58,970 nucleotides of DNA. It comes from Asterionella formosa. Taxonomy: Eukaryota. This document shows, piece after piece, positions 5,585 through 42,500 of this stretch (position 1 is its first letter; each line of letters opens with the position of its first letter). The position numbers were made by a program, and so were the translations under genes. A model generated the notes under the pieces. It was not told the DNA's origin. It worked only from the letters and a program-made list of their open reading frames with translations, and searched no databases. The stretch covers positions 1 to 58,970 of the forward strand of contig NKIB01013358.1 of NCBI GenBank assembly GCA_002256025.1. The letters are read 5' to 3'.

Positions 5585-8161
5585 CTAAATCTGCCCAACC
5601 ACAAGCACCAAGGATGTCAATAGTGTCTCTCCTTGTCGCTCTAGGGGGCCACCAGCAAGTCCAGTCTTGATATCTCGACATTGACAAGAAATGCTCTCTG
5701 CGGATTGACGAAGTGTCTCGGCCAGTCGAGTATCGCGCACTAAGGATAGTAGTGCCTCCATCGTGGAGGATTCCATGGCCAAGATATCTTGCTTCGCTTG
5801 AAAAAAAACTGTGTGGAGAATTAACGGCTCCTTGATAAACAACGATACAAGGGGTTTCATCAAGTAAGGAAATGCATCATGGAGTACACCACTACTGCTA
5901 TTTCCTGCAGTCGGGTACAAGAGAAACAGTTTAGTCACCGCATTGGTCATCGCTGCTTGCCAGTCAGGTATAATGCTCACAAGGCAAGATGACAAGGCGC
6001 TCAAGTCCAATGAAAAGTAAGTAAGAGTGTTCACTGCTGCACGAAAATAGACAAGACGAAGACCGAGATCCAATTCTGAATCGGCACTGAACTGCTCGAG
6101 CCACGACAGTATCACTGGCCAAACCAACGGAAGAACTTTGCTACTTCCACATCGAACGAAAGCTCGCGACGCTCGAAGGACTGCTGGATCATGTTCCAAT
6201 AGGCTCTTGACGTCGAAAGTTGGCGGGTTACTGGCGTTCGAAATCTTTTGCTTCCTTGGCTTTGGGAGACCCATACTGGTCACGATAAAGTTAAAGTAAA
6301 TCTGCATCGATACAGACCGTCTCACCATGTGCATGACATCTAGTGTATAGTCTGCAATGGCAGGCTCAATACGAGTGCAAGTGTAGCTCAAGCCGATCAA
6401 GGTCGCCTCTTTCGGACCTTGCATCAGAACCAGCAAGGATATGGCCTTTCGTTGCAGGGTATCGGGATAAGCCTCCAAAATGGCGATTGTCTTCTTGTTA
6501 CTGGTAAAGATAGGAATAAGATTTTCTCTGAGAGACTCCACCAACCCCTTCCGTTTCACGTCATTCACGTCAAGTCGTCGCACCACTTCGTGCAGAGTCG
6601 AAATAGCACAGCTACTTTCGTCTAAAAAGTCTCCCTTCCAAGCGCCAAGGTAGAGAGGTAGTTTCGAGAGCATCTCTGAAAGTTCTTCCATTGCATCTAT
6701 TTCAAAATTCCATTGGGCCAAAGTGTAATGAACCATTCGAGCTGCTCGTCGTCCGGCCATGGACCTTGCCAGGTCTGAAGAAACGTCGTCAAAGAATGAT
6801 GTCTTCAATCGCTCCAAAATCAAGGTTCGACTGGAAAGACTTAGTTTCGTGACCAAAAACTTGCTCAAAACTTTCACGACCGTCGCAGTCGGCGGGGACG
6901 TGAGCAAGTATTCCACAATCTTTTCTTCTTCATTTGAGGAAAGCTTCATAACCAGCTCACAAATATCTCCGTTCAAGGTTTCGTAGCGACTAGCGTGTTC
7001 TTTGGATGCAGCGTGAAAGGGAAATGCAGGCAGAATAATTTTGAGTAATTGGATATAGATTGAATCCTTGACGTTCACCAAAAATCCATGTAAGTGTCCC
7101 ACGATGCCAATCAGTATAAACACTTCCTCAACCTCCTGAGCCGGCAAATCTGTACCCCCAGAATCAACTTCAGTCCCTCGCTGAATGACTTCGATGAAAA
7201 TGTCTCGCAATTTGCTGAGCAAATCGGTCTCCATTGTTTCAACGGAAATGGAGTTTTCAGGTCTGCTATAGTCGGTAATCGTCCTCAGACTCAACATGTT
7301 GCTAATTGGTGCAATCGAATGCCGGTGTTCAGGAGCGGTCAGCAACACCACAGCGTGCTCGGCGACGTTCAGCACCTTTTCTAATTGAGCGGTCTCCTTG
7401 TTCTCGTGCTTCATTGCTTTACATAAAGAAAGCAATGATGCCAGAACTTGAAATCGCTTCCCTTCCCTGGATTCCTTAGATTTTTTCTTTCCGTGTTGAT
7501 GAGCACTTAGTTCATCACCCCTCATATCCGTCTTTCGAGGACCAAAATCACTCAACAGAGTGATGTAGGATGGAAGTATCTTGAGTATCATGTCCCGCTC
7601 CATCATGTCACCGACAACCCCACTGACGATCTCCACACCTTGACTCGAGTCGAATCGAATATCTCTATCCAAAGAATACAGTCCAGAGGAAATAAACGCT
7701 GTCAACAGAGGTAGAAAAGGTCTCATGGTAGCCTTGCACTTGGTCAAAACATTTCTCACGCACGACCATCCCAATTGTCTGACGATATCGCCTTCGTCCA
7801 ACGTACACTTGAGGACAGGAGGAAGCAGTATCGACAGGTGCGCCTCAAGGATTTCTGTGGCATGATTCTGACAAGTGGCCAAGTCCAACAGACCCTTACA
7901 GGCAGATATTCTAACAGGTATTGCTGGATGAGATAGTTGATGCGTTAACTCTGCAATAGACTTGCCCTTGCCTGAGGTGATTCCAGATGCTTGATGATGG
8001 CCAACAACAACGCTTTGGCTCCTCACTCCAACCGTGACGGACTTGAATTTCACGTTCGTTTCATTTGCTGGGGTCAGAGCGCGCTTTCCGACCTTGGCCT
8101 TGCGGCGTTTGAAATCAGAAGGAATATGGGTTTGTTTCCGTTTGGGGGCAGCTGTTGCCAT
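5585..8161 (-). CDS. TEX10: pre-rRNA-processing protein Ipi1/TEX10 (Rix1 complex), ARM/HEAT-like
   Basis: 858-aa intronless ORF. N-terminus DFKRRKAKVGK...NETNVKFKS...I.ELTHQLSH...R and the later LYSLDRDIRFDS segment match the Ipi1_N/TEX10 pattern. Confidence 0.88.
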   Translation of the reverse strand: MATAAPKRKQTHIPSDFKRRKAKVGKRALTPANETNVKFKSVTVGVRSQSVVVGHHQASGITSGKGKSIAELTHQLSHPAIPVRISACKGLLDLATCQNHATEILEAHLSILLPPVLKCTLDEGDIVRQLGWSCVRNVLTKCKATMRPFLPLLTAFISSGLYSLDRDIRFDSSQGVEIVSGVVGDMMERDMILKILPSYITLLSDFGPRKTDMRGDELSAHQHGKKKSKESREGKRFQVLASLLSLCKAMKHENKETAQLEKVLNVAEHAVVLLTAPEHRHSIAPISNMLSLRTITDYSRPENSISVETMETDLLSKLRDIFIEVIQRGTEVDSGGTDLPAQEVEEVFILIGIVGHLHGFLVNVKDSIYIQLLKIILPAFPFHAASKEHASRYETLNGDICELVMKLSSNEEEKIVEYLLTSPPTATVVKVLSKFLVTKLSLSSRTLILERLKTSFFDDVSSDLARSMAGRRAARMVHYTLAQWNFEIDAMEELSEMLSKLPLYLGAWKGDFLDESSCAISTLHEVVRRLDVNDVKRKGLVESLRENLIPIFTSNKKTIAILEAYPDTLQRKAISLLVLMQGPKEATLIGLSYTCTRIEPAIADYTLDVMHMVRRSVSMQIYFNFIVTSMGLPKPRKQKISNASNPPTFDVKSLLEHDPAVLRASRAFVRCGSSKVLPLVWPVILSWLEQFSADSELDLGLRLVYFRAAVNTLTYFSLDLSALSSCLVSIIPDWQAAMTNAVTKLFLLYPTAGNSSSGVLHDAFPYLMKPLVSLFIKEPLILHTVFFQAKQDILAMESSTMEALLSLVRDTRLAETLRQSAESISCQCRDIKTGLAGGPLERQGETLLTSLVLVVGQI

Positions 8162-8840
8162 TCTTGTTCAGTAATTGAAGCAGTGCTGGAAATGGTGAGA
8201 CGAGGTGATGGGTGTTGGGAGCCCGTCTACCTAGCTTGATGGCTATACATAGTAAAAGCGAGGAATTTAATTAAATCAAACTGTCTGTCCACCATCGATG
8301 TATTGATTGGCTGTTGTCACGAGAAATATACGGGTACATAGTAACTGAACGTGGCTACAAAGTGCGACAATGTGAGGTTTAAGACGGTTCTTACTTAAGA
8401 AAAACCAACAAAAACTTACACAGCAGTCAAGTACCAGTACCTGTTACCGCGGGACATTTCGGTGCCATGAAACAAAAGCAAAACAAATATGTACCGTGTG
8501 GTACAGTATTAGTAAGAATGGGTTATCTTGTACCGTTAGACTATAAGCAATCGATGACATACCGGTATAGAATGGAATTTTACATTTTACATTTTACATT
8601 TTTACATACATACCGGGTAATCAATTATCAATTTAGTCCGAGTGCAAGTACCGGTACTGGTAGTATACATACATATACATAAGAATATCTCCGTAGCATT
8701 ATGCTGTATTTTCTTAGTAATACCGGTATTTCTGTTTGTAGAGTGACTGCCGAATGAAATCTGATCCATACGTACGCTCCGGTATGATATGTTGGATACA
8801 AAACACTATGTACTCGGAGTACCAGGTACAATACAAGTGC

Positions 8841-8915
8841 GTTGCGGTAATTTTGCTGAAACTAAAGATTTAGCTATTTTTATCCAAGATTCAAATGTTG
8901 CAAAATGAGCGCAAC
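8841..8915. mobile_element. ~80-bp MITE-like hairpin element, copy 1
   Basis: gttgcggtaattttgc ... gcaaaatgagcgcaac terminal inverted repeat. Related copies at 45175-45267 and 45576-45668, with a partial end near 58612. Confidence 0.65.
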
Positions 8916-9070
8916 TGCCTTGCTCTGGTACCTGGTACTACACACACAATGCAACAACAAAGATAGAATCGTGAAGCAAGCATCATTTCCTAACCATAAC
9001 AAGACTTTACGAACAACCACAGCCCTCACTCTCCCTATTGGTACCAAACCGTACTACATCACACTCTATC

Positions 9071-10339
9071 ATGACGACCTATTGTTACGAATACAGCATT
9101 ACAAATGTTGAAGCGATTAACTTGGCGAAATCGAACCATTCCATATCCACAGGGATTGGCTTTTTCGATCATATGCTTGATCAATTCAACTCGCACGCTC
9201 AAATCGGAGTAGCAGTCAATGTGCTTGGACCTGCTGAGGAGGACATCAACCGAAATGCAAACGTTGATCAATCAGAATTGCTAGCTAAAGTAGGGCTGCA
9301 CCTCGGAGCATCCATCAAGGCGTTGTTGGCAGAAACACCTGTTGAGGCGACTTCTCGATTTTGCTGCCCTCTTGACGAGGCCCTCGTTGAATGCATCTTG
9401 GTACGATCTCAAGATGGACGATTGGAATCATTCACATTACCACCTTATGGTATTTACGGAAAGAATGGGAGAACCAAGATTGGACAGCTCCAAACACTTG
9501 CTGTCGAGAGCTTTTTCAAGGCCTTGGCAGAAAATTCGGGCTTGACAATCGCCTTGACCAAGATTCGTGGCAACAATGGTCATCACATTGTGGAATCGTG
9601 CTTCAAGGCCATCAGCCGGGCACTTCGAAACTTGCTGGACGGAACCAATGTGGATGTGACGAAGGGGCCCCACTTTGACCAGCTTTGGGGCGAACACAGT
9701 GATTCTCACAATCAATCATTGGCGCTCCAACGAACAGCGAAAGTCGACCGGTCGACTAAAGAAACATCCATTTTACTAGATATTGCTTTGGATGGAGGAG
9801 CCGGAGGTGTCACGGTCGAAAGTGGAATTATTATTTTGGATCGAATCATCACTGCACTGGCAACCCATGCGGGCATGTCCCTCACTTGCAAGTGCAAGGG
9901 AGACTTGTATGTAGATGAGCACCATTCAACAGAGGATGTTGGTATTGCAATTGGTCAGATATTGTCCAAGGCGTTTGGAACCAAAGCAGGCTTGAATCGC
10001 ATGTGGTGCGCCAGAACGACTGCGGGCGGTGCTACCGTGGAAGTGACAATGGATTTATCAAACCGTCCCTGCTTCACGGAAAATCTGAGCTTGTCCCAGG
10101 AAGAGTATGTTGTGGATGGACAAGTCTTGACAACGGAGATGTTTCATCATTTTTTCGAGTCTCTGACAATGAATGCTCATATGACTGTGCACATCTTGCA
10201 AATACAAGCTGGTGACAGCATGGAGGATCGGGCGATGGCAACAGCTGCAGCCTTCGGCAAGGCACTGAAGTTCTGTGCGGCAGTTGATCCTCGACGAGGA
10301 GGTAAGACGGCAAGCTCCAAAGGGACCTTAAGCGCATAG
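9071..10339 (+). CDS. HIS3: imidazoleglycerol-phosphate dehydratase with two tandem IGPD domains
   Basis: Domain 1 has STGIGFFDHML, PLDEAL and GNNGHHIVESCFKA. Domain 2 has RSTKETSI, GDLYVDEHHSTEDVGIAIG, DLSNRP and C-terminal SSKGTL. Confidence 0.93.
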   Translation: MTTYCYEYSITNVEAINLAKSNHSISTGIGFFDHMLDQFNSHAQIGVAVNVLGPAEEDINRNANVDQSELLAKVGLHLGASIKALLAETPVEATSRFCCPLDEALVECILVRSQDGRLESFTLPPYGIYGKNGRTKIGQLQTLAVESFFKALAENSGLTIALTKIRGNNGHHIVESCFKAISRALRNLLDGTNVDVTKGPHFDQLWGEHSDSHNQSLALQRTAKVDRSTKETSILLDIALDGGAGGVTVESGIIILDRIITALATHAGMSLTCKCKGDLYVDEHHSTEDVGIAIGQILSKAFGTKAGLNRMWCARTTAGGATVEVTMDLSNRPCFTENLSLSQEEYVVDGQVLTTEMFHHFFESLTMNAHMTVHILQIQAGDSMEDRAMATAAAFGKALKFCAAVDPRRGGKTASSKGTLSA

Positions 10340-10804
10340 TTGAAGAATAGGAAAGAAGCGGCTGCAGAGGCTCCATTTTTAATATTGGTTGCTACAGTGA
10401 ATTGAGCTTAAGCAAGCACACATCCAATGAGTGTCAATATGAATGCCAACCATGGTTCAAAAATTCGCTAGCTTCCAGGTCTATAGTAATTCGTCATTAC
10501 CGATACTTTGTGAGTGGAGCATGGTCCGCCTTGGCCAATGAAGTGACGACTCATCTGCACTCATATAATAGTATCAGAAATGTAATTTTCAACCCATTTT
10601 AGGGGTTGCAAGAGTAACAATATGTTTTGTCGATGAAGTGATGCTTCTGGGGCATTGAAACCTGCCTCTCGCTCGATCAGAGATTGATTGAATACATAAT
10701 ACAACATTTATTTATTTCTACTTATCTCCTCCCTGTATACGGCACAAATTTCGGATCTAGTTACGAAATGTCCCATCACAGTACGCAGTCAAAATCACAA
10801 AACT

Positions 10805-11687
10805 TTAGAAATTCTCACTATTATGCACTTTTTGCAAAGCCTGCAACGAAATTTGGCTCTCACAAAGCTCGCCTACAGTGCTGCATGCAACAACAGTTCC
10901 GAGCGTTGTCAATTGCAAAAATTGTTCATCCTTGTTGCAGGCACTACTGCGTTTGGAGAGCTGTCGAACCTTGTCATGAGGCATGTTCGCCGACGGTTTA
11001 TCACGCACAACTTTCGGCAACTTGGACTTCTTGAGCTGTCGTCGTCGATTTGACTTTTTGCTCAATTTTGGCTTCAACTGGATGTGCTGTCCGCATTGGC
11101 TTTGACTCGCCATAAGCTTGCAGTCTTGAGGCTTTGATCGCAGACTATTTTGTCGAGTTGTCACTTGTTGCACCAGTCCAGATGGGGGTACTGGAGCCTC
11201 AGCCTTGACGATGAACGGTTCCGCTCGAGTTAATTGAGGGGCAAAGCCGCGAATGCGATCCTCGTTGCTCATACCGAAGCTAGAGATGAAGGAAAATTTC
11301 TCAGATTTCATTCGTTGTCCAGCTGTCACTCATCGCAGCAGTCCGGGTGGGGGTACTGGGCCTCAGCGTTGATGGTGAACGGCTCACATCGCGTTAGTTG
11401 GGGAGCAAACCAACGAGTGCAATTCTCGCTGCTCGTGTCAACGCTAGAATTCAAGGAACGGACTGATTTTTCCTCGCCTTGTGTACAATTTTTAGGAGGG
11501 GCTTCGTCATTTTTGAAGCTCGGAACGATAGTTGAAGCTCGGAACGATAGTTGAAGCTCGGAACGATACGGCCCAAGTAAATGATCGCCTGAGTGTTTTT
11601 TTTCTTCTCTGGGGATTGTAAGCGTTTTGCGTTGCCTTCACTTGCATTTGGTTTCGTTATCACTCCACCCGTTGACAAATGGTTCAT
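10805..11687 (-). other. possible degenerate/hypothetical gene with internal repeats
   Basis: Broken ORFs (11451-11687, 10805-11329). A ~70-bp segment is duplicated at ~11176-11245 and ~11341-11410 (QLTRAEPFIVKAEAP vs QLTRCEPFTINAEAQ). No recognisable family. Confidence 0.3.
11513..11568. repeat. 19-bp tandem repeat x3
   Basis: ttgaagctcggaacgatag repeated three times, the last missing its final base. Confidence 0.9.
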
Positions 11688-11826: not shown

Positions 11827-12093
11827 TGTTGGAGAAAATATTTTAGGAAAGAAAATCCCGGTATAAATTACCTACTACATATTGAATCGAATGAATCAAG
11901 AAAGAATATGGTACCAGAGAATTCGAAAACAATCTACGTCAACAGTAAAAACCCATAATTCTATTAAAACTCTTAGGAACGATTACAATCGATTACGGAG
12001 ACATCGTTGTTCATATCTACAGCCTATTTGGTCCCTGACGTGTCCTTACAGGATACAAGAAAGCATAGAGTGCTTTGGGACGCAATTTCAACA
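11827..12093 (+). repeat. 5' LTR
   Basis: tgttggagaaaa...atttcaaca; differs from the 3' LTR at two positions by eye. Confidence 0.96.
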
Positions 12094-12227
12094 GTTTTAA
12101 TAGAATTAGCCAGCCAGGAAGAGCCGTGATATCACAATCAACAACAGGTTGGACCGTTGAGAGTCCGGAGACAAGATCTGAGGGTACCAGACCATCCAGA
12201 GTCTGAAGAAGTCACACAAGGCGCATC

Positions 12228-15200
12228 ATGAGTGGCAAAGGAAAGTTTACCGAGAAGGCTCAAGCCAAGGGAGGGAGCAATGTTGCTTCTCACTCAATCA
12301 AGAAGTCAGTCAATGACTATAACTACTATCTCGGATCATCAAAGCAGGCATCTGATTATGAGACTACTACTGAGTATCTCATCAATCATATCAAGAAAGT
12401 GTTCGACTATGGCAACGACATAGGAACCGCGCTCGAGTTATTAGAACCAATGAGCACATTGGCATGGAAGCCAAGAATGCAAGTGAGCATTGCAACAACA
12501 GAAGAAGATGGCGCTGCAGAGAATCGACAATATGAGATTGAGTTCAAGGCTGACTATGACACCTACAGTAAAAGGGTACAGGCCTACGAAAATAATAATA
12601 CCAAGGCATATGTGTTGCTCTGGGAAAGATGCAACAAAGCCATGAAGAACAAGATCGAAGCAAGATCCAATTACAATAGGATCAAAAATAACCCAATAAC
12701 ATTGCTTATGGCAATTAAAGAACACGCATTAAATTTTCAAGAGAATCGATATTCAATGTCGATCATTTTAGATGCAATGAGAACGCTTTTATTCACAAAG
12801 CAAAAGAAGGAGAAAGTCTACAAGACTACACCAAGAGATTTCGTGTGGCATGAAATGTGCTCAAGTCACACGTGGGAGGACCCATTATCCTCACCAAGTT
12901 CGTTGAAGCCATGGATGGATACAATGAGAACGACATCAAGCAACGAGATAAATTTCGCGAACAAGCTTTCAGTCAATTTATGGCATATTTATATCTCGAT
13001 AATGCCGATAAAGCCAAATACGGATCAATTATGACAGGGCTGAACACTCAACAATCACTCGGCAACAATCAATACCCGAAGAGCATCACTGAATCAAATA
13101 ATGTTCTCAGCAACCATCGGTTTGACATAATAAATAAATCCAACTACAAGAAACCAGGAGATAATGATAAAGAGAGGAAACAAAAGGATGCAGGCAAGGA
13201 AGATGAAGATGTGAACTTATCGTTTGCACAGTTAGAAGGAAAATGTTACTGCTGCGGAAAAGCAGGTCACAAATCTCCTTCGTGCCGAGACAAGAACAAA
13301 CCCAAAGAGGAATGGGCTATCAACAGGGCCCAAAGCCATGCACAGACACAGGCTTCTATATCAGACACAAGTACAGTTACGTCTGTTAATTCCAACAACC
13401 CGCCGTCATCACAAGCTTCACAACAAGCAAATGTCAATCAATTTTGATGGGGGGGGGAGCTCATTTGAAACTACAATTTTACCAAGCATCTGAGATGCGT
13501 GACTGGATACTATTGGATAATCAATCAAGTGATGAAATTCTTGGAGAAGAAGACTATGATGAAATGACTCCGGATGAAATATATGAAGCAGAACAGCTTG
13601 AATTAAACAACAATACTCAAGAGGATGACTCTGAACCTGACGAGGGAAACAATGAGAATAATATTGAAATGGATGCAGATGAAATCCAAGATGAGGATGA
13701 AAGCCAGCAATGAAACTGAAAATGAAGAGGCAATGTTAGAATTCAATCCAAGCACTCAGGATGACTCAGACCCAAATGTTGGAACTACAAGGTCTGGAAG
13801 AGTCTCAAGACCACCGTCAAAACTAACCATGGTCCAAAATCATTTGCATACCCAAGCACACTGTCGAGAAGAATACACGACTGATAATGCGAAAGTGATC
13901 GCAAAGACAATGTGTTATATGAATGAGATGTGTATCGATAAAGAAGCATTTCACTTTGTTCAGTCATACAGCTTAAGGAAAGGCCTCAAGAAATTTGGCC
14001 AGAAAGGAAGAGACGCTGCGTATAAAGAAATGAAACAACTACATGATAGAGTTGTATTTGAACCAATTAGGATTGAAGGCCCAACTGATGTCGAAAAGCG
14101 ACGTGCAATGGAAAGTCTAATTTTTTTGGTTTAAAAGAGAGACAAGAGCATTAAAGGCAGAGCATGTGCCTATGGCAGTTCGCAACGTGAATACATGGAA
14201 AGAGATGAAGCAGCTAGTCCAACTACGATGACGGAATCTGTTATGATAACAGCAACAATTGATGCGAAGATGTTATGACTGCAGATATAACCAATGCATT
14301 TGTGCAAGTGGATATCGATGAGAAAGAAAAAGGGGAGCGAATCATTATGAAGATTAGAGGTTTGCTTGTCAATATGCTGACATAACTCAGCCCCAAGAAC
14401 TTATGAAAAATATGTTGTTTATGAAGGGAACAACAAGGTCCTATATGTTAGGATGATCAAGGCATTATATGGCATGTTACAGTCATCATTATTATATTAC
14501 AAGAAATTTCGGAAGGATATTGAGTCAATTGGATTCAAGGTAAACCCATATGATCCATGTGTTGCAAATCACATTGTTAATGGCAAACAGCACACAGTTA
14601 CTTGGCACGTAGACAATTTGAAATCAAGTCACGTGGACAGCAAAGTGAATGATCAATTTTTGGAATGGCTCAAACAGAAATACGCTTCTGACGAAATTGG
14701 TTAAGTCAAGGTCATGCGTGGAAAGAAGCATGATTATTTGGCGATGACACTAGATTACTCTCTTCCAGGAGTGTTGAGGGTGGACATGACCAAATATGTG
14801 AAATCAATGATTGATGATTTTCCAGTGAAACTTGAACGTGTTGGAAAATTTCCATGGACAGATAAATTGTTCACAGTTGATACAAAATCAAAGAAGCTTG
14901 AATATGAAAAAGCAAAAATATTTCATACTTTTGTTATGAAAGGAACGTTCCTATGTAAGCGAGGAAGACAGGACATTCAATCAGGAATTGCATTTCTGGC
15001 AACCCGAACTACCAAACTGAATGAAGGCAATTGGGCAAAATTAGTCAAGATCATGAATTTCTTGAAAGCAACTCAGAACGAGGTTGCATCTATGAGTGCT
15101 GATGACACTCAGAGCATTAAATGGTACGTTGATGCGGCGTTTGCAGTACACAAAGATTTTAAAAGTCACACTGGAGCTACATTGTCACTTGGAAACGGAA

Positions 15201-15580
15201 TTATTTGTTCTATGTCTCCGAAACAGAAAGTGAACACTAGAAGTTCGACTGAAGCAGAATTGGTTGGTGTCGATGACATTATATCAAAGGTGTTGTGGAA
15301 AAAATTATTTATTGAAGCACAAGGACACAAGGTGACTACAAATGTCATTTACCGTGACAACACTAGCGCAATGAGGCTAGAAGCAAATGGAAAAGCAAGT
15401 TCAGGAAAACGCACGCGACATTTCAACATCAAGTATTTTTATATTACTGATCTTATTGAAAGAAAGGAAGTTCAAGTCAAGTACTGTCCAACGGATGCAA
15501 TGTTAGCAGACTACATGACGAAAGCACTGGTTGGAACGAAATTTATTCATTTTCGTCAGCAAATTATGAATTCAAAGTGA
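12228..15580 (+). pseudogene. copia gag-pol pseudogene (gag, zinc knuckle, protease start, RT, RNase H; integrase missing)
   Basis: CYCCGKAGHKSPSC knuckle; WILLDNQSS protease; KALYGMLQSSLLYY and TWHVDNLK (RT, with DD changed to DN); WYVDAAFAVH, YRDNTSA and MLADYMTK (RNase H). Several stops and frameshifts. Confidence 0.93.
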
Positions 15581-15602
15581 GCATCCGTGTCCAGCAGGAG
15601 TG

Positions 15603-15869
15603 TGTTGGAGAAAATATTTTAGGAAAGAAAATCTCGGTATAAATTACCTACTACATATTGAATCGAATGAATCAAGAAAGAATATGGTACCAGAGAATTC
15701 GAAAACAATCTACGTCAACAGTAAAAACCCATAATTCTATTAAAACTCTTAGGAACGATTACAATCGATTACGGAGACATCGTTGTTCATATCTACAGCC
15801 TATTTGGTCCCTGACGTGTCCTTACAGGATACAAGAAAGCATAGAGTGCTTCGGGACGCAATTTCAACA
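15603..15869 (+). repeat. 3' LTR
   Basis: Direct repeat of 11827-12093. Confidence 0.96.
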
Positions 15870-16262
15870 CTACCTGGGTATCTGAGGAAATCAATTTTAT
15901 AACCACCCTTGTAGCGCGCTTCTTCCATCCCTCCACTACTGTTGACAACAAAGTGTTGCCTGATGCGGCATTGTCCATTGATTTGCCTGACAACTACAAG
16001 GCCAGCTGATTACTTGTACAGCTGCAACAGAAGAACAATACCGGTAGTCTGATCTTCGATTGCGAGTTGACCAATTCGAACCAACTGCACCCAGCTACAG
16101 TGAATTACTACTGACAGTAGTTTTCACCAGCACTGTAACAATTTGTACATGGTTGCATGCTTGCATAACATGAGTTCCGGTATACAACAGCCACAGCTAA
16201 ATTTTTATTCAGATGGTGTCCTCTGTTGCTTATTTTTTTGGTGCCTGATGATGTCACGAAAC

Positions 16263-23351: not shown

Positions 23352-26300
23352 ATGAATTCCGAACTAGAAGCCATAATGAAGCGTCGACGCCGACGAGCAG
23401 ACGGTTATCAATCACCAGGAAGGAACAAGTCGACAAGCGGAGACGAGGGTGACAGTAAGACAGGGGGTCGGAAAGGGAAAGGCTCTCGACGAAAAAACAC
23501 TCTCGAAAAGATCAAAACCATTTCCAAAAGACATCTTACCGATGAATATAGTGGAACAATAGGAGAGGTTTTTAGCATTGAAACGGAAGATCAAAAGCCA
23601 GCCGAAAATCTGAAATACAAAACGACTGGGTTGACGGACGACGAGTATTCCTCCAGTGAAGATGAAGCCGCCTTGGACCAGAACGGAGAAATTCCTGACC
23701 TTTCACCAGAAGATGTTGCTTCTTTGGAAACTGATAATTCTCCATCGTTTCTTCAAGATACCGATGACGATCCGAATTGGAACCTTCCAGTAGGTACTGA
23801 CGCTGTTCTCCCTCCACCGACTGATGACCAGGATTTTGCCAACTTTCAACCTGACTTTGATGCAACTTTTCCTTCAGAAAGTCTAGACGAAGACGAGGAA
23901 CCAGAATATGAACCGCCGCAATTTGAAGATTACGAACCGCCAACCTTTGACGTTTCAGCATTTCCTCAAACTATCGAGCCCATCGACCTTTCTCCGTTGG
24001 AGAACCCGCCTATTCGACCTCCCCCTGAAATTCGCCTTTCGCCTGAAACTTACTTGACAAATTTGAGCTCATGTGCACCAATAATTAATCCAATCACTGG
24101 AAATTTAATTGTCTGTCGCATGCGCAAACATACACTTGTGCTGCACGAAATGGATGTCCACCACTGCATGGAAGTCCTTTCAACGCCAATTTTGAACGGG
24201 GACATGCAGCGTAAGATCCATGCAACATATGGTCTTTCAGCAATTGGAATAACCCAGGTTGTTCGCCTGGCAGCAGGTCTTCATCAATCACAGGGCGTCA
24301 GTCGTGTACGATTGGCAGCTTTGGTTGATTTCGATGTTTTATCACCAAGTGGCAATAGAAAAGTACAAACATGTCTGGCTGTCTGGCAATGGGGGTATGG
24401 TCCGCATCGTCCTGTTGCATTGCAATCGCTTGTCTCGCCTCCAAATCATGCTGACTTCTCTTATCAATCGAATTCGCTTCTGATGGCAGATGGCCTTGTA
24501 TTCTTGAGTGGGTATGCACGATCCAAAGGACCTTGTGTATTTATTGCTCGGCCAACCATGAAAGTTACCTGGTCGGCTAATTTTTTGAATGCATCCCAGC
24601 AGTTGTCTGTCACATGCATGGCCGTGACACCTCATGCACACCGGAAGCACAAATTCCTTGGCATCGGTATGAATGATGGAACCTTGTCGGTGTGGACATA
24701 TGAACATTCCATTGACCGGAAACAAGGGAAAGAGGATTCCATGGTAATTCTTCCCCTCTGTCGATTAGAGGGTTCGAAGTTCATCGGTCAGCAAATACCG
24801 ACCCGTCTATCTGGTGATGATGAGTTGACTACCAAGAAAATTCCAGAAGAGGAGCAGGAAGTGAGATTTTGCACTCATCTCGAATGGAAGTCTCCAGATT
24901 CTAGTTATTCGTCCCTTTTGCTTCTGGTTGCTGCATTTACAGATGGGTTGGCAATCTTTCATGTTTCTTTGCCGATGCTAGTTGACACGACACCTCCTGA
25001 GGACTTGTCTGAACTTGGTAAAGAGAGCAGCAAGGGTAGTGGTATAATTCGGCCGCTGCCGACGCCAAAGAATTCAATGACATTGGAGAAAACCATAGCG
25101 TTGAACCCCTTTGTGGCGACCAGGTGGTCGATTCATATGGATCGCTGTGAAGTAAGCTGGGTGGATCTTGGGCCGCATATGCAACCTACTCTTGCAATCT
25201 GGTTGGAAAAGGCTGAAGTTTCGGCCGCGTGTTTGCTAGGCGTGATTGATTTGCCACCCATGGGCTCGTCTGAAGCGTTGAAACCCTTTAGAGTTCTAGT
25301 TGAGCATTTCTTGCCGTATTCGATAGGTGGCCTTCTGAATACATGCGCGCTGGGATCAATCTGGTGCTACGGGAACGGAAGCATTGAAACATTGACTCCT
25401 GACTTGTCCAACGACGGCTCATTTTTTATATCCTTGCGGAGCCCAACGACATCAGTTCCACACGGCTTAGACTCGGCCGGTTATGTCGCTTTACCGGATA
25501 CGGTGGGTGATCCTGAGGGTGTTCTTCATATATTCTCTGTCGTGCAATGTGGACGACAAGTCTGCCCTGAGCTGCCCTCACTGACACCCAATGCCACTCG
25601 TTTAGATTGGACCACTCCAGTTCTGCGGCACTGGCTTTGCCGCACTCGCGTTGGTGACACCAAGGGTGACCAAGAAATGATAGATGAAGATACAGAGACT
25701 GGTGGCTCCTCTGGTCGTCTCATTTGTGACCTGTCCTTCACTGGATTGACTCCTGTTCGTATCGTACGATGCAAGGGCAGCCCTATTTGCGCTGTGCTCT
25801 TCCAACCCTCCCTTGGAAACTCGCAAGGGATTTCTGTTGACCCCATCTCTTTCACGTTAGTGGATACCACGGATGGATCGATTTTGGACACTCGAGATGG
25901 CCGCGACATTGTTTTCCTCCCGATGGACAATCAGGGTTGTGAGAGAGCATTGGTTCTCGGCCAAGATGGAACTATCATGTACATGCTCCGTCGCCAAAAC
26001 ACTGACGACATCAGCATTGTTTCCTTTGAAGAAGGACCACCGTTCCGTCCGTTGTTGGGATTTGACGCAGGAGACAATTATATTGAATGCCGACGCTTGT
26101 TGGCAGTGTCCGAGAAAGGGAAACAAGGCCTTGTCTTGGCCGGAACTAGGGTATCTGATTCTCAAGTTTGTCTAGTTGCTGGGAATTTTTCTGAACCCGA
26201 CGAAAGCAGCCTTGGTGGATGGACCAGGATGATTCCTAATATGAAAGATGGCTACGTATTATGGTGCAAGCCCGGAGAAGAAATTTTGACGTTGTCAGAA

Positions 26301-29300
26301 CTCCCCCAGTACGAAGAAGGGCGGCGCTGTATTGCTGTTGCTACACAGAGGCGAGTAGCTCTTCTTTCAAATGCCATGACAATTCGGTCTGAGGCGAACG
26401 TGATGCTCTCATCCATTTCTCTGGCATCCATTGGTTCACATTGCGTGTGTTTCTGTTCTCGTGATTTCAAAGTGCGCTACCTCTGTTGCCTTGACGGAAA
26501 ATTTGCCCAGGGAATCATTGCAACATTGCCCACTCCTCGGTATGGTCATTCGCCCTACATGCTGATGGCAATGCGACCAGAACGCTTTCTATACTTCAAA
26601 TATCACGCAGGGACAAGGATGGTCGAAAGGGGCGAAAAGGAAGACTCGGTTGCGCTCCCAACTGCTTTGACGAGGCCTGCAATGTTACTAGAGCCCATGG
26701 TTGCCAATGCATTATGCGAGGCTGATAATCCAGGTGAATCTACCATCCTCCTTCGTGCCGTCGTAGAGAGATTTGGCCGAAAAGTGGGTGCTTTTCCTCA
26801 CGGTGACGACGAGGGGATTGGAAGTGGTGGAACGGGTCTGACGCCCCAAGTCTTGGAATTGTTCTCTGCCTACGGACATAAGCATCCTTCCTCGTGGCTA
26901 CTGACCGGAAACAGCCGATTCGACCGAAACGCGAATAGCAAAGTGCTACCTTCTTGGATGCCAATTGCAAATAAAGCCTTTGCTGCAATTAACTCAGACG
27001 CCAACCTCCATATTGTTGCAACTGGAGACCAATATTTTTCCGAGTACGTCAAATCTCCAGATACAAACATGGCAGCAACATTGCCACGTCAAAGCGACCC
27101 TTCGTCTATCTTTTGTCGTGAGCTTGCTGTGAAGGCAATGATGAATGGTGATGTTGCTGGCGCGCTGAAATTCTTAGATTTGGCTGGATCAGAATCATCT
27201 GATAGTGCGATACTGCAGCTAGTTCTTGCTGCACAGAGTGACCCCTTCGCTGATGTTACTCCTGCCTTAAAGGCTTTGTCGGGGTTCGGGGAAGAAGGAT
27301 ATGGTCGATCATCGTCCTTCAACCACAGTTCCGCCTCGCTAGCTGCGCTTGCTCTGGATCTCCGTACTCGGTCACAAAACGGGACACTTAAACTATGTAA
27401 TGGTGAATTTGAAAAGATGAATGATGCGATATCTCGTCGCTACATAAGACAACTCGCTCCATCAATTCAACGAAGCCACCGAAGTAATCGAGTCCGCCAT
27501 CGACTTATTGGCGAGGAAGCTGTGGATAAAGCCGTCACACGTAAACAAGAGACGAAGGACCCTGACAAGCTTTGGAGTACAGCATGCAATGAGTCCAGGC
27601 ATATTTGGAATGAAGGTCCTTTCAAGGACAAGGAAAATCTGCTTTTGCTGGACCGCATGGAAGAATGGCTGGGTAGGCGTCGCCCAACGATTCTTGGAAA
27701 AGAAGGCGCGGAAATGGCACTTGAGCGAGGTGAAAAGACACTTGCTGATATTTTGAATCGAGCAGACTATGACGATGATTCGTTTGGTGCACACAGCGAA
27801 GAAGGAACTATCGATAATAAAGGAGGCTGGGTTGATGGAATTGGTGAAGGCCGAACCGATGACGACATGCTTTCAGCCTACTTCCGAATGTCTGACGGGG
27901 CGGACGAAGATAGTGCCTGGAGGGCAGAAGGTTTGGCTGACCTCAGCAAGCATAAGAACAAAATAACTATTGTAGACCTTGGGAACACGAGACTGGAAGA
28001 GACAAACTCAAGTGTGGATGAAGGGGAAGCAGGAAAAGTTAAGCTCCTGTATGACATAGTTTTCGACGAACACCACATTGGTGACGCCCCGTCAGGTTTT
28101 TATATACAAGCAGATCGTGGAGGTAGCCTCGACGTTGGGATGCTACACGCCGCAGCACGGGATTCGAGAAAGCGTTGCACACTCGAGTTCTGGTATCACC
28201 TTCCCGCTGCCGATGATGTAACAGAGGAAATAATACTTGCTCGTCGATCGATCAGCTCGAATACGGACGAAGTATCGAAGCTTTGCATTGCCACGGACAG
28301 AGAGTTTGCTCTTTGGGAAGTGGCTGTAAAGCCAACAGGTGAATTGGAATTCAGAACCTGCGGAGGAACTCAGCTGAGCAGCCTCGAAGGCGATGATGAT
28401 GATTTTGGTGGGGGTGACATGATGGGAGATTTCGGCGATGACGACGGCAGCGTTGCCGATGTTAACAATTCCCTCGTCAACTGGGCAAGGAAAGACGGAT
28501 CTGGCGGAGGATGGAATCATCTGGCGATCACATTCAGTTCAAGGCACCAGGACGATATAACTGATTGCCTTGTCACCATTTTCATGAAGGGCATTCGTGT
28601 GGCAGCAACCATCGCGACAATTGACAACATTCCCGGAACCGAAGACGATTTTATTCCAAACAATAGCAATATTGATGACGCAATGCGCAAATCGGTCTTA
28701 ATTTTTTGCATAAACCCTGTCACCGGACTGAGATTCACTGAATTGCGCGTTTGGAGTTGCGAGCGCAGTGAGGATGATATCAAAATGATGATGTACGAAT
28801 ACCTTCGAGCGGCCGAGACCAAGCAAAAGTTCAAGGTTAAGATCCGGAGCAAGCAACGTGCTGATGCTATCGCGGAGAAGTCCCCAAAGAAGACTCGTTT
28901 TGGGTTGGCCCCTCCACTTATGTCTGGCGGGGGTAGATTGCCCCCTCCTCCTGGTGGCGGTACTAAAAGGGCTTTGCTAGCTCCTCCTCCAACTGACACT
29001 GTTAAAGCTGACGATGGATTCTCACCGCCAACCAGAAATTGGCTAAATGACAAGCAGACTGAGTCAGCACCTGCTGCCATGGGAGACGCATTTGGCGGCT
29101 TTCCTAACATGGAGCCTGTAGTACCGAGCAAGCGAGGCGGTGTTAAAGGTCAGCAAAGCTATAAAATGCAAATGGAAGACTTTGGCATGCCACCTCCTCC
29201 AGTCAAGCTCAAGTCTCCCCCTGGTTCGCAAGATAGCACATTTGACTCTGCTTTTGATCCATCTGCTAACTTCTTTCCAGATTTATCAGCCCAACCTATG

Positions 29301-30629
29301 CCTCTTCAATCTGATAGGAATCAGCCTCCTACGCAAGTTCAACTTCATCCTTTCGACCAGCGAAGCAACGAAAGTGGTAGTTTTGGCACTCAGGACTCGG
29401 CAAAAGGTAGAGTCGACATTTGGAAGTCGGGTATCCCGTTGTCAAAGCAAGTCCGCAGCAGCGCGGCAGCTGCCTTGGTCCGTGGTCCTCCAGCTACACG
29501 TCACTTTGGGGGAAATCGTGGAGGTTTGGCTACTTCAGTCGAATACGACCGAACGGTGAACGGAAGCGTTGGAGTGGGATCGATTGCCATTTGTGGTGCG
29601 GAGAAAACTGTTGTCTACAAACAGGATAGAGTACCTCCCGGGAAGACATATCCAATTGGAGCTTCAGGAGCCATTATAAGTGACGAAATGGACAAGGAAG
29701 GAAGCGAATATTTGTGCTGCTTCCTCGCCAAAGATAAGCGTATGGTAGTTTTTGAGCTTTCCACCAAGACTGTGGTCGTCGAGCTTCAAATGACCACGAA
29801 GCTCAATTTCTGGAGATACTTGCCTCCTCAAGCTCATGGCCATACCTTGGTGTTCATGTTGATCACTCCGGTTGGAGGATTTCACTGGATGCCTTTGGAT
29901 GAATCGCCCCGACCTCGTCAAGTCTGGAAGCGTGGTTCAGATCTCCAAGGGAAGAAGATTGTCACATACGAAGAGGGTGGATCAAATGGATTGGTCGGCC
30001 CATTGGCTCGATCGACTGTCGCTCTCTTGTTGGTCTCAACTGCATCTACCGGAACACCTATGGAAGCCTGGCTCATGCCTATATGTGGTGACTCACGAGC
30101 TGTTTGTGTGTCGCACAACGTCTTGGGAACTGCCTTGTTGAGACCATATGTGTTCCATGAAGCGTTCCTTCCTCTGTTGGTTACTGCTGACAAAATGAAC
30201 GAAAAAGATATTATTTTAGAAGTCGCTCCCTTGGTGGAACACATCGGCGGTAGTTCCTTGGGAGTAGGAGACGTTATTACTTGTGCAATTATCGACCAGC
30301 GAAAGGTTCGTAAAATTAACTTACAGCCACCTACCCTGGCTATGGGCACTTGGCCAGAAGTCTTTGTTTGTTGCCATGAGAACATGATTGTTGCTGCAAT
30401 CAGACGCAAGGGTTTGTTGGTGGCATACGAATTCAAGGAAGGTGATTTGTTGTTGATTCGGCAAGAGACTGTCGGTCATTATATTGTCGATGCGGCGATT
30501 CGTGGTGGCGTCGATTGCGATGAAGTCGAGGTCGTTTTACTGCTTTCGGATACAGAGAACACAAGAGATGGTCGTGCCGTTTCTATTACCATCGAGTTTT
30601 CTCAGGTATCGTCGAGGGGAAGCATGTGA
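23352..30629 (+). CDS. 2425-aa putative vesicle-coat protein: WD40/TTRAY(TWD40)-like scaffold + LamG/ConA-like domain + Pro-rich linker + clathrin-terminal-domain-like propeller
   Basis: Single intronless ORF. WD40-like strands (LGIGMNDGTLSVWTY), TWD40-like motifs (GRDIVFL, LLEPMV, LTPQVLEL), LamG-like TLEFWY...WNHLAITF...ELRVWS, and clathrin-like PIGASGAI...FWRYL...GFHW...LQGKKIVTY. CDS is secure; domain calls are by eye. Confidence 0.85.
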   Translation: MNSELEAIMKRRRRRADGYQSPGRNKSTSGDEGDSKTGGRKGKGSRRKNTLEKIKTISKRHLTDEYSGTIGEVFSIETEDQKPAENLKYKTTGLTDDEYSSSEDEAALDQNGEIPDLSPEDVASLETDNSPSFLQDTDDDPNWNLPVGTDAVLPPPTDDQDFANFQPDFDATFPSESLDEDEEPEYEPPQFEDYEPPTFDVSAFPQTIEPIDLSPLENPPIRPPPEIRLSPETYLTNLSSCAPIINPITGNLIVCRMRKHTLVLHEMDVHHCMEVLSTPILNGDMQRKIHATYGLSAIGITQVVRLAAGLHQSQGVSRVRLAALVDFDVLSPSGNRKVQTCLAVWQWGYGPHRPVALQSLVSPPNHADFSYQSNSLLMADGLVFLSGYARSKGPCVFIARPTMKVTWSANFLNASQQLSVTCMAVTPHAHRKHKFLGIGMNDGTLSVWTYEHSIDRKQGKEDSMVILPLCRLEGSKFIGQQIPTRLSGDDELTTKKIPEEEQEVRFCTHLEWKSPDSSYSSLLLLVAAFTDGLAIFHVSLPMLVDTTPPEDLSELGKESSKGSGIIRPLPTPKNSMTLEKTIALNPFVATRWSIHMDRCEVSWVDLGPHMQPTLAIWLEKAEVSAACLLGVIDLPPMGSSEALKPFRVLVEHFLPYSIGGLLNTCALGSIWCYGNGSIETLTPDLSNDGSFFISLRSPTTSVPHGLDSAGYVALPDTVGDPEGVLHIFSVVQCGRQVCPELPSLTPNATRLDWTTPVLRHWLCRTRVGDTKGDQEMIDEDTETGGSSGRLICDLSFTGLTPVRIVRCKGSPICAVLFQPSLGNSQGISVDPISFTLVDTTDGSILDTRDGRDIVFLPMDNQGCERALVLGQDGTIMYMLRRQNTDDISIVSFEEGPPFRPLLGFDAGDNYIECRRLLAVSEKGKQGLVLAGTRVSDSQVCLVAGNFSEPDESSLGGWTRMIPNMKDGYVLWCKPGEEILTLSELPQYEEGRRCIAVATQRRVALLSNAMTIRSEANVMLSSISLASIGSHCVCFCSRDFKVRYLCCLDGKFAQGIIATLPTPRYGHSPYMLMAMRPERFLYFKYHAGTRMVERGEKEDSVALPTALTRPAMLLEPMVANALCEADNPGESTILLRAVVERFGRKVGAFPHGDDEGIGSGGTGLTPQVLELFSAYGHKHPSSWLLTGNSRFDRNANSKVLPSWMPIANKAFAAINSDANLHIVATGDQYFSEYVKSPDTNMAATLPRQSDPSSIFCRELAVKAMMNGDVAGALKFLDLAGSESSDSAILQLVLAAQSDPFADVTPALKALSGFGEEGYGRSSSFNHSSASLAALALDLRTRSQNGTLKLCNGEFEKMNDAISRRYIRQLAPSIQRSHRSNRVRHRLIGEEAVDKAVTRKQETKDPDKLWSTACNESRHIWNEGPFKDKENLLLLDRMEEWLGRRRPTILGKEGAEMALERGEKTLADILNRADYDDDSFGAHSEEGTIDNKGGWVDGIGEGRTDDDMLSAYFRMSDGADEDSAWRAEGLADLSKHKNKITIVDLGNTRLEETNSSVDEGEAGKVKLLYDIVFDEHHIGDAPSGFYIQADRGGSLDVGMLHAAARDSRKRCTLEFWYHLPAADDVTEEIILARRSISSNTDEVSKLCIATDREFALWEVAVKPTGELEFRTCGGTQLSSLEGDDDDFGGGDMMGDFGDDDGSVADVNNSLVNWARKDGSGGGWNHLAITFSSRHQDDITDCLVTIFMKGIRVAATIATIDNIPGTEDDFIPNNSNIDDAMRKSVLIFCINPVTGLRFTELRVWSCERSEDDIKMMMYEYLRAAETKQKFKVKIRSKQRADAIAEKSPKKTRFGLAPPLMSGGGRLPPPPGGGTKRALLAPPPTDTVKADDGFSPPTRNWLNDKQTESAPAAMGDAFGGFPNMEPVVPSKRGGVKGQQSYKMQMEDFGMPPPPVKLKSPPGSQDSTFDSAFDPSANFFPDLSAQPMPLQSDRNQPPTQVQLHPFDQRSNESGSFGTQDSAKGRVDIWKSGIPLSKQVRSSAAAALVRGPPATRHFGGNRGGLATSVEYDRTVNGSVGVGSIAICGAEKTVVYKQDRVPPGKTYPIGASGAIISDEMDKEGSEYLCCFLAKDKRMVVFELSTKTVVVELQMTTKLNFWRYLPPQAHGHTLVFMLITPVGGFHWMPLDESPRPRQVWKRGSDLQGKKIVTYEEGGSNGLVGPLARSTVALLLVSTASTGTPMEAWLMPICGDSRAVCVSHNVLGTALLRPYVFHEAFLPLLVTADKMNEKDIILEVAPLVEHIGGSSLGVGDVITCAIIDQRKVRKINLQPPTLAMGTWPEVFVCCHENMIVAAIRRKGLLVAYEFKEGDLLLIRQETVGHYIVDAAIRGGVDCDEVEVVLLLSDTENTRDGRAVSITIEFSQVSSRGSM

Positions 30630-33679: not shown

Positions 33680-33889
33680 TTTGCCGTTGTGTGCCTTTTT
33701 GTTGCACTGCTGCAGATAGATTTTGGAACGGGGATGAGTCGACAAAACCACTGAACCGCGTAGTGAAGTGAACTGCGCTTTTCTGCGGAATCAAAGATAG
33801 ATCGACAATGATCGAAGGATGCTAATGAATCAAAGGAAGGAACAAACAATATTTGTCTGATGAACGAAAACGTTCATGAAATGCTCGAG

Positions 33890-41214: not shown

Positions 41215-41935
41215 GCATTGATACATACATCGTTCCTTGTCTAGATAGATATAATCGAACCAAAATAGCAGTACAGAATAACGAAAACGACAGAAGCGAT
41301 CAAAATGTTCTATGGAAGCAGCTATGAAATCGCAAGTTGGCTGGACAAATAGCAGCTACATTTGTTCCACATGCAGTGTTTCACTGTCATACTTGCCAAT
41401 CCGCTCTAACTAACATAACAAGCAGACATAACAAGCAGCAGACAATGGTATCAAGAAAAAGTTGAAAGGTCCCAGTTACAATCCCGAATTGAAGAACGGT
41501 AGGCAGGATAGAGTGAGAATTATCATTGTGAGGACAAAATCGGGCATATGGTAGGAAAAATCAATGAATATGTAAACTACATAATTTAACATTATGGTCT
41601 TGTAAAGATAATACCAAGTTTACAGGATAAATATTTTAACATGTTCAAAGTACACAGTAAAGTTTAGTTGAAACCAGCATGCATGGTTGTTTCTAGTACC
41701 ATGCGTGTGTAGACTAGCTAAATGACTAGAATATCCGTTAAGCAAATAAATGACCAGCGCAAAAGCTTTGCCAACATCAGATTTATTGGAATCATCATTT
41801 GTCCAAAAAATATGTACAATGCGACAACATGATAACCACGAGAAGAAGAGCAATCCAACAACCAACCACATCTATTTGACAACGAATTGCTACATGCATC
41901 ATCATTGAACTCGTTTCGATTCAGACTGGGCAGTG
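41215..41935 (-). repeat. dispersed repeat, inverted relative of 53160-53870
   Basis: Colinear diverged match, e.g. aacagatgcggttggttgttggattgc, atatgcccgattt(c/t)gtcctcacaat, ctcactctatcctg, ttttgatcgcttc. Confidence 0.85.
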
Positions 41936-42500
41936 TGTTGTATACTGTGTAAGTACAATGCGACGGAAATGGTCTGTCTGGATCGGATTTGCATGTGTAG
42001 ACATTGTCAAAAGCTTTACTCAATTTAATGATGTTGTTGGTTGGATTTTGGTCATTTTGGTCTATCCCCATGAGTTTCTTGTCGATTCCTGTGGTTCTCT
42101 CATCTGCTTGTAGCGTGTTTTATACTTTGTAGGTACCGTGCAACGGAAACGGTCTGTTTGGATCTGATTTGGATGCTTGGATAGTATTGTCAAAAGCCTT
42201 ACTCAATTTAATGATGCTGTTAGTTGGATTTTGATCATTTTGGTCAATCTCCATGAGTTTCTTGTCGATTCCTGTGGTTCTTTCATCTGATTGTAATGTG
42301 TTGTATACTGTGTAGGTAAGGTTTGATAAAAACGGTCTGTCTGAATCTGATTTGGATGCTTGGATAGTATCATCAAAAGCCTTACTCAATTTAATGATGC
42401 TGTCAGTGGGATTTTGATCATTTTGGTCGATCTCCATGAGTTTCTTGTCAATTCCTGTGGTTCTCTCATCTGCTTGTTGCGTGTTGTATACGTTGTAGAG
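41935..42500 (-). repeat. three tandem 180-183-bp units (60-61-codon in-frame repeat)
   Basis: Anchor tatac recurs at 41941, 42121, 42304 and 42487; translates as repeated ERTTGIDKKLMEIDQNDQNPT.SIIKLSKAFD. Confidence 0.9.

Follow-up and report, generated by a model that had tools for sequence, protein, structure and literature searches.

A two-domain imidazoleglycerol-phosphate dehydratase from Asterionella formosa whose one set of catalytic residues appears to be divided by subunit role

We have analysed a stretch of 58,970 nucleotides from Asterionella formosa (contig NKIB01013358.1 of assembly GCA_002256025.1, positions 1 to 58,970 of the forward strand; hereafter the window), and we describe in it a gene at 9071..10339 (+) that encodes two imidazoleglycerol-phosphate dehydratase (IGPD) domains in one chain of 422 residues. 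From the way in which the functional residues are divided between the N-terminal domain (D1) and the C-terminal domain (D2), we consider it likely that the protein is a working IGPD in which D1 and D2 form an obligate pseudo-heterodimer within the chain, each chain having one live di-Mn site. It would be the IGPD of the cell, acting at step 6 of histidine synthesis, and neither domain alone would build an active site. IGPD converts imidazoleglycerol phosphate into imidazole-acetol phosphate (EC 4.2.1.19). It is a textbook homo-24-mer, Mn-dependent and of 432 symmetry, in which the active site is common to three identical subunits, and it is a target of herbicides and drugs.

The coding sequence is a single intronless open reading frame (ORF) closed by a TAG stop. 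Its ATG at 9071 is the sole ATG within 9006-9075, an in-frame stop lies directly upstream, and an identical protein of 422 residues (P0002) is present in public collections. The IGPD family of Pfam, PF00475, matched two stretches of the protein (E 5.9e-67, 224.7 bits, cut-off 27), and a profile made from ten canonical single-domain IGPDs matched residues 6-200 in D1 (E 9.1e-32) and residues 215-420 in D2 (E 1e-45). The best match to the NCBIfam HisB models covered residues 220-420; among the models listed, 2 of the 13 HisB equivalogs scored above their cut-off (NF002111, 251.2 against 231; NF002114, 215.8 against 189), and the remaining 11 stayed below their own. In MAFFT alignments, the two domains agree in 37 of 187 columns (19.8% identity), and each half is 29-35% identical to canonical bacterial IGPDs. 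The structures of D1 and D2 discussed here are predicted models. For the whole chain, AlphaFold2 (AF2) with a 110-sequence alignment gave a mean predicted local distance difference test score (pLDDT) of 95.4 and a predicted template-modelling score of 0.94, and the top Foldseek matches were all IGPDs (TM 0.81-0.94 on the target), the next matches being unrelated.

The subunit roles at the active site were taken from published reports. Acanthamoeba IGPD is numbered as the A. thaliana enzyme minus 7 (PMC6029752). In A. thaliana numbering, which we obtained from a phmmer alignment to 4mu0/2f1d (chain index + 2) and from MAFFT alignment with canonical sequences, Mn1 is bound by H74 of chain A' with H47, H169 and E173 of chain A, and Mn2 by H73, E77 and H145 of chain A' with H170 of chain A, while the water on Mn2 is held by D108 of chain A (PMC6029752). 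The phosphonate pocket is made by K177 of chain A, by R99 and R121 of chain C and, through water, by H55 of chain A; chain C also supplies the Ser and Lys of the C loop, and the active sites adjoin the molecular twofold axes (PMC6029752). The Medicago paper likewise has one Mn bound by H73, E77 and H145 together with H170 of the neighbour, with R99 and R121 coming from a third subunit, and places neighbouring sites 27 Å apart across the twofold axis (PMC10978614). In canonical IGPD, E21 is essential, as is the C loop (PMC4509728). An ordinary IGPD subunit has three roles, A, A' and C, at three different sites.

D1 (9071..9640, +; residues 1-190) shows an IGPD fold without strand beta1 and keeps the chain-A residue set. 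The equivalents of H47, Q51 and H55 are H34, Q38 and H42 in the motif GIGFFDHMLDQFNSH (residues 28-42; 9152..9196, +), those of D108 and E109 are D102 and E103 in SRFCCPLDEAL (residues 95-105; 9353..9385, +), where R96 is an R99-like Arg, and those of H169, H170, E173 and K177 are H171, H172, E175 and K179 in GNNGHHIVESCFKA (residues 167-180; 9569..9610, +). The first DxHHxxE motif survives as a remnant, NVDQSELLAK (residues 64-73; 9260..9289, +), in which H73, H74 and E77 are replaced by S, E and A, and the H145 ligand is lost to a Ser in AVESFF (residues 144-149; 9500..9517, +). By motif inspection and alignment with canonical IGPDs, the D1 sequence has no DLSxRP, the R121 Arg being lost, and no C loop. 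In place of the C loop stands a linker (residues 190-220; 9638..9730, +), which varies more in the 195 relatives counted below than either domain (mean pairwise identity 0.298, compared with 0.52 in D1 and 0.57 in D2). When folded alone (AF2, residues 1-205), D1 reached a pLDDT of 95.2, and its model superposed on 8qax_B in VIA-align with Z 23.1 and a root-mean-square deviation (rmsd) of 2.5 over 173 residues. Residues 5-202 of the model align to A. thaliana residues 19-193, strand beta1 being the part that is missing, and the model has an extra hairpin (residues 117-131) and an insertion before helix 2. For the linker, the whole-chain model predicts an ordered structure that includes two short helices (200-206 and 211-218; block pLDDT 95-98), and therefore D1 and D2 are predicted to stand in a fixed mutual relation.

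D2 (9725..10336, +; residues 219-422) shows the complete IGPD fold with the C loop, and keeps the chain-A' and chain-C sets together with E21. The E21 equivalent is E231 in the beta1-beta2 turn, within RSTKETS (residues 227-233; 9749..9769, +), and the D71, H73, H74 and E77 equivalents are D282, H284, H285 and E288 in VDEHHSTED (residues 281-289; 9911..9937, +). H360 in MFHHFF (residues 357-362; 10139..10156, +) corresponds to H145. R310 and R332, corresponding to R99 and R121, lie in GLNRMW (residues 307-312) and DLSNRP (residues 328-333), which are spanned by 9989..10069 (+); between these two motifs, a degenerate TAGGAT takes the place of PLDEA, so that D108 and E109 are now G and G. Similarly, LDRII stands in place of DHML, with R at H47 and A at Q51. 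The second xHHxxE..K motif is present as a remnant, GDSMEDRAMATAAA (10211..10252, +), with SMEDRAM instead of xxHHxxE and with E, D, M and A at H169, H170, E173 and K177. The C loop DPRRGGKTASSKGTLSA (10286..10336, +; residues 406-422, ending in SSKGTLSA) carries the phosphate-binding Ser and Lys as S415/S416 and K417. D2 matched 2f1d_A with an E-value of 3.4e-37 in phmmer. Its model superposed on 6fwh_A in VIA-align with Z 29.7 and rmsd 1.4 over 196 residues, and on the closed substrate complex 4mu4 with Z 28.9, where the C loop was included and the alignment reached chain residue 207.

When both domains are considered together, the Mn ligands of D1 are H47, H169, H170 and E173 only, those of D2 are H73, H74, E77 and H145 only, and the whole chain holds every Mn ligand exactly once; neither domain has all eight, as a canonical domain does. 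The catalytic and substrate residues are also present once per chain, with D108, Q51, H55 and K177 in D1 and E21, R99, R121 and the C loop in D2. Judged by alignment to the published labels, the chain-A set (H47, Q51, H55, D108, H169, H170, E173 and K177) is exactly the set kept by D1, and the chain-A' set (H73, H74, E77 and H145) and chain-C set (R99, R121 and the C-loop Ser/Lys) are exactly those that D2 has kept. An earlier note on this DNA, made from the letters, had listed motifs as kept or lost in each half and had proposed a split along the boundary of subunit contributions, giving an obligate pseudo-heterodimer. Translation and alignment placed all of these motifs where they had been described, and mapping of the Mn ligands of both halves to canonical IGPD gave no full ligand set in one half. 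The proposed boundary agrees with the chain labels of PMC6029752 in 193-195 of the 195 relatives, and these labels also support the pseudo-heterodimer. E21, which is kept only in D2, was absent from the residue list of that note. We also considered domain-swapped units, in which the N-half of one domain joins the C-half of the other, and dropped them because no pairing unites E21 and H47.

We examined the division of residues in relatives of the protein. By three homology searches and one exhaustive profile-free search we collected 336 proteins, from which the self copy P0002 had been removed first. Fragments, canonical single-domain proteins and HisB fusions were dropped before counting, and the 195 proteins counted have a full-length C-terminal IGPD domain and upstream IGPD matches over most of a domain. 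In a MAFFT alignment of these relatives, the half retaining a functional residue shows it in 193-195 of the 195 proteins, whereas the other half shows the canonical residue in 1-30 of 195. In D1, H55, H169, H170, E173 and K177 are each kept in all 195, Q51 in 194, H47 in 193 (the other 2 being gaps), and D108 and E109 in 193 each. In D2, E21, D71, H73, H74, E77, R99 and R121 are each kept in all 195, H145 in 194 (plus one Glu, as in many bacteria), and the C-loop S, S and K in 195, 194 and 195. The lost columns of D1 have the canonical residue in 21 (E21), 1 (H73), 3 (H74), 21 (E77), 13 (R121) and 6 (H145) proteins, and those of D2 in 2 (H47), 2 (Q51), 15 (H55), 2 (D108), 2 (H169), 1 (H170), 12 (E173) and 30 (K177). 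No HH pair occurs in either degenerate motif region in any of the 195. The exceptions in the invariant columns come from five proteins, namely two with N-terminal gaps, the long-branch outlier P0216 and two with PH for DE, and the pattern was the same in a more careful alignment made earlier with the first 136 proteins. At the level of sequence, these counts show that each chain has one complete catalytic residue set, which is divided by subunit role and under strong purifying selection.

The gene is also transcribed. The earlier note had raised the case of an unexpressed gene, and RNA contigs cover the whole ORF with 0 differences. The stretch 8600-10800 is present in 14 listed runs from 11 studies, 13 of the runs being recorded as RNA. 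In the four runs aligned, poly-A RNA contigs of 3 studies span the entire ORF unspliced and with 0 differences, and no splice joints were seen in the aligned contigs over the gene. The poly-A transcriptome contig X1 covers 8958-10800 with 0 differences. The metatranscriptome contigs X2 (9014-10502) and X3 (9014-10318 and 10355-10720), as well as the pieces of X7, which begin at 9011, have 0 differing letters over the ORF. X3 has a loose 3' end at 10720, AAAAAAAA, with an eight-A tail that is absent from the DNA. With contig starts at 9011-9014 and one contig end at 10720, the approximate mRNA is 9011..10720 (+); this evidence consists of contigs, whose ends are only hints, and carry-over of DNA is formally possible. 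The picture is an unspliced mRNA of ~1.7 kb that spans both domains. Many of the relatives are likewise complete ORFs from MMETSP transcriptomes. Most relatives, including the A. formosa protein, begin ~30 residues before the DHM motif, and in these no N-terminal targeting extension is obvious.

Based on these results, we propose how the two domains may work together. D1 would have kept role A only, and D2 roles A' and C together with E21. In the live di-Mn site, the role-A face of D1 would meet the role-A' face of D2 across a pseudo-twofold axis, and a further D2 would close the site with its Arg pair (R99 and R121) and C loop. The twofold-related site, with D2 in role A and D1 in role A', would be dead, and each chain would probably bind two Mn instead of four. 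Our results show the residue partition, its conservation, the predicted fold of both halves and the transcription; the chain would probably also be catalytically active. As to the assembly, 12 chains would probably form a cage of 24 domains with 12 live sites and with tetrahedral instead of octahedral symmetry. If the canonical packing is coloured by its tetrahedral subgroup, unlike domains would meet across the edge twofolds and like domains around the threefolds; such packing and colouring would give a particle of 12 chains with 12 live sites, in which four trimers of D1 alternate with four trimers of D2. The scheme requires that chain C is the trimer mate of A'. We regard the 12-chain cage itself as plausible. 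The wider proposal, namely that diatoms, haptophytes and Symbiodiniaceae-type dinoflagellates make histidine by means of a 12-chain cage of four D1 and four D2 trimers with Mn in 12 of the 24 sites, and that a single origin of the tandem gene was followed by its spread as a unit, either along with red-plastid lineages or from one to another, is tentative, and we would give it somewhat less than an even chance. In such a cage, the 12 dead junctions would be held by metal-free contacts, for example through an Asp or Glu of D2 at the H170 position. In that column (residue 386 of P0001), Asp or Glu is found in 176 of the 195 relatives, a non-random feature of the dead half-site that may point to a conserved contact without metal at this junction.

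On the one hand, the composite site could be real in a smaller or otherwise different oligomer, such as a trimer or hexamer of chains, and the surfaces of D1, which differ from those of a canonical subunit by the lack of beta1, the extra hairpin at residues 117-131 and the insertion before helix 2, would fit such an assembly. On the other hand, the invariant role-C residues of D2 act, in canonical IGPD, on the site of two other subunits, and therefore three or more domains, drawn from more than one chain, must come together; moreover, both domains superpose closely on cage-forming IGPDs. Accordingly, we consider a smaller oligomer to be rather unlikely. A complex prediction with two copies of the chain gave 0.75, with 0.59 for the control, and counts neither for nor against the assembly.

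The relatives are spread over three algal groups. The diatoms include Thalassiosira, Skeletonema, Cyclotella, Mediolabrus, Cylindrotheca, Mayamaea and MMETSP names, the dinoflagellates include Effrenium, Symbiodinium, Durusdinium and Polarella, with Symbiodiniaceae among them, and the haptophyte is Prymnesium parvum; the residue pattern was confirmed by name in six diatoms, Effrenium and Prymnesium. The earlier note had proposed a survey of HIS3 architecture in stramenopiles. The two-domain form is found in diatoms, but it is not confined to stramenopiles, as the dinoflagellates and the haptophyte have it too. We built a tree of 23 D1, 23 D2 and 40 canonical domains by a quick IQ-TREE search, leaving out six tandem proteins that failed the full-length criterion. 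D1 formed a clade with 22 of its 23 members (support 99) and D2 a clade with 22 of 23 (support 100), P0216, on a long branch, being the outlier to both. Both clades contain matching inner groups, which are diatom, dinoflagellate-like and haptophyte-like, and therefore the domains split once, before the copies of these lineages diverged. In terms of sequence, then, the D1/D2 split appears to be a single event that predates the diatom, dinoflagellate and haptophyte copies.

In the free tree, D2 falls within the canonical IGPDs, and the branch that leads to D1 is long. When D1 and D2 were constrained to one clade, the likelihood was 8.74 log units better than that of the free tree, and this arrangement was not rejected (p-AU, from the approximately unbiased test, 0.649), a result that long-branch effects could favour. 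In the simplest history, one IGPD would have duplicated and one of the D1-D2 interface sites would have died by one mutation; residues serving only the dead site would then have been free to decay, which would lead to complementary decay of the two domains. The head-to-tail duplication claimed in the earlier note is in keeping with the unrejected single clade, and is not proven by it, because the tree fits an in-frame tandem duplication and a later fusion of two genes alike. In the latter history, two separate paralogous IGPD genes would first have formed an obligate hetero-oligomer and would have been fused later. The tree is equally compatible with this, and P0203, a D2-type protein of 210 residues that starts with Met, could be a free-standing D2. 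However, all five short D1-type proteins that we inspected are truncated or mis-spliced pieces of the tandem gene, so that free-standing D1 proteins were ruled out for these five, and no complete free D1 was present among the 120 listed matches of a D1-only search. We hold the fusion of paralogues to be rather unlikely.

Some of the collected proteins differ in their architecture. P0203 is a standalone D2-type IGPD in which H47 and the second HHxxE are lost and the C loop is kept, and it may represent a D2 gene that stands by itself or an exon called in error. Longer relatives (P0178, P0179, P0200, P0171 and others) were considered as extra fusions, and Pfam shows in them IGPD only or unrelated pieces; we treated them and similar proteins as merged gene models, for example with nucleoporin FG repeats. 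P0241 (1401 residues) joins histidinol dehydrogenase, a class I/II aminotransferase, a HAD phosphatase and a canonical IGPD domain, which in the tree belongs to the canonical group, next to the D2 clade.

Several points weigh against our reading of the protein as a working IGPD with its roles divided between the domains. The legend of Fig. 2B in PMC4509728 labels Glu21 as chain A, and here E21 is kept only in D2; it is the only residue at odds with a published chain label. Because the strand order in IGPD is 1-2-4-3 (PMC7284861), the beta1-beta2 turn with E21 should lie next to the end of beta4, by the H73/H74 of its own subunit. From this position, and from the chain-A label that D108, the pseudo-symmetry mate of E21, has in common with H169/H170, we infer that E21 belongs to chain A'. 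Besides, the Arg of the D1 SRF motif, present in 156 of 195 relatives, is a role-C feature that D1 has not lost. Finally, P. tricornutum is reported with two IGPD ORFs (PMC3901274), which, together with the lack of a full ligand set in either domain, would suit a non-catalytic relative (a pseudoenzyme or regulator) in cells that make histidine through a separate canonical IGPD; we consider this very improbable, as one full set of eight ligands is invariant with the acid-base residues and phosphate binders in 195 proteins of three algal groups, which is a prediction of selection for catalysis and not of decay, as the gene is transcribed, and as only one IGPD gene is reported for T. pseudonana (PMC3901274). 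No single-domain canonical IGPD of a named diatom was among the matches listed, in searches that were not aimed at such proteins.

The ORFs on either side are typical of a eukaryotic nucleus and include Brix, Ipi1, coatomer beta, an NAD-binding oxidoreductase and thioredoxin, and no histidine gene is among the annotated neighbours. An Rfam scan of 8000-11500 gave no match. Just upstream of the gene, at 8841-8891, ~35-50 nt are matched in three runs by RNA contigs with a depth in the hundreds to thousands, which is very high; these contigs continue into unrelated sequence on both sides, and GGTACC-type repeats lie nearby at ~8818-8830, 8928-8940 and 9039-9046. This stretch may be a short element common to other abundant transcripts. 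Elsewhere in the window, two very long ORFs at 23352-30629 (+; 2425 residues) and 30908-33751 (-; 947 residues) have no Pfam match at E 1e-5, and the 32-34 kb bin has a strong strand skew (GC skew 0.233, AT skew -0.235). The region 12001-16000 is A+T-rich, with an AT skew of 0.265 and 0.143 in two 2-kb bins, and its ORFs at 12228-13034 and 14714-15580 have no Pfam match. At 41935-42498, a unit of 183 bp is repeated in tandem (3.1 copies, 86% matches).

Canonical monofunctional IGPDs (bacterial HisB, yeast HIS3 and plant HISN5/IGPD; 2F1D, 4MU4, 6FWH and 8QAX) share the family and the fold with both halves of the A. formosa protein. The same eight Mn ligands, E21, D108, Q51/H55/K177, R99/R121 and the C-loop Ser/Lys are all present somewhere in the A. 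formosa chain, which would presumably catalyze the same reaction. However, the canonical subunit of ~200 residues has both (D/N)xHHxxE motifs and all ligands, whereas the A. formosa domains have one HHxxE each and about half of the functional residues; in addition, they are fused, D1 has neither beta1 nor a C loop, and no more than half of the sites could be live. In monomeric herpesvirus dUTPase and trypanosomatid deoxyhypusine synthase, too, enzymes with inter-subunit sites have been duplicated or paired, one site is dead and the copies depend on each other. Those enzymes have unrelated folds and chemistries, whereas the parent of the present protein is a 24-subunit cage with three roles per site. 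The bifunctional histidinol-phosphatase/IGPD HisB (NF003937) and eukaryotic histidine fusions such as P0241 also have IGPD as one domain of a longer chain, but these combine different enzymes with one complete IGPD, and not two complementarily decayed IGPD domains.

HHxxE was reported in all of 535 surveyed IGPDs (PMC7284861). Background on IGPD fusions is covered in PMC6029752 and PMC10978614; the latter analysed 12,710 family members and, in its available part, notes only phosphatase fusions. PMC3901274 lists diatom IGPD genes and, in the part available, does not comment on their architecture. Databases already name these proteins as IGPD, and in the literature searched we found no description of the two-domain split form, although subscription journals or supplementary alignments (e.g. 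S2 of PMC7284861) may hold one.

In summary, we consider that the two-domain IGPDs document with unusual clarity how shared active sites have been subfunctionalised in nature, with 195 sequences that can be checked against the chain labels of crystal structures. They provide an independent, evolutionary read-out of which residues act together, in which E21 is placed with the H73/H74 subunit, against one published label. The decay would have respected three subunit roles at once, as the IGPD site involves three subunits. If the 12-chain cage is true, this would be a natural, datable case in which a homomeric cage became an obligate pseudo-heteromer by complementary decay. Our study indicates that the IGPD of ecologically dominant phytoplankton would differ in stoichiometry, and probably also in symmetry and assembly, from the plant enzyme on which inhibitor design is based, and this difference bears on how triazole-type inhibitors may act on algae.

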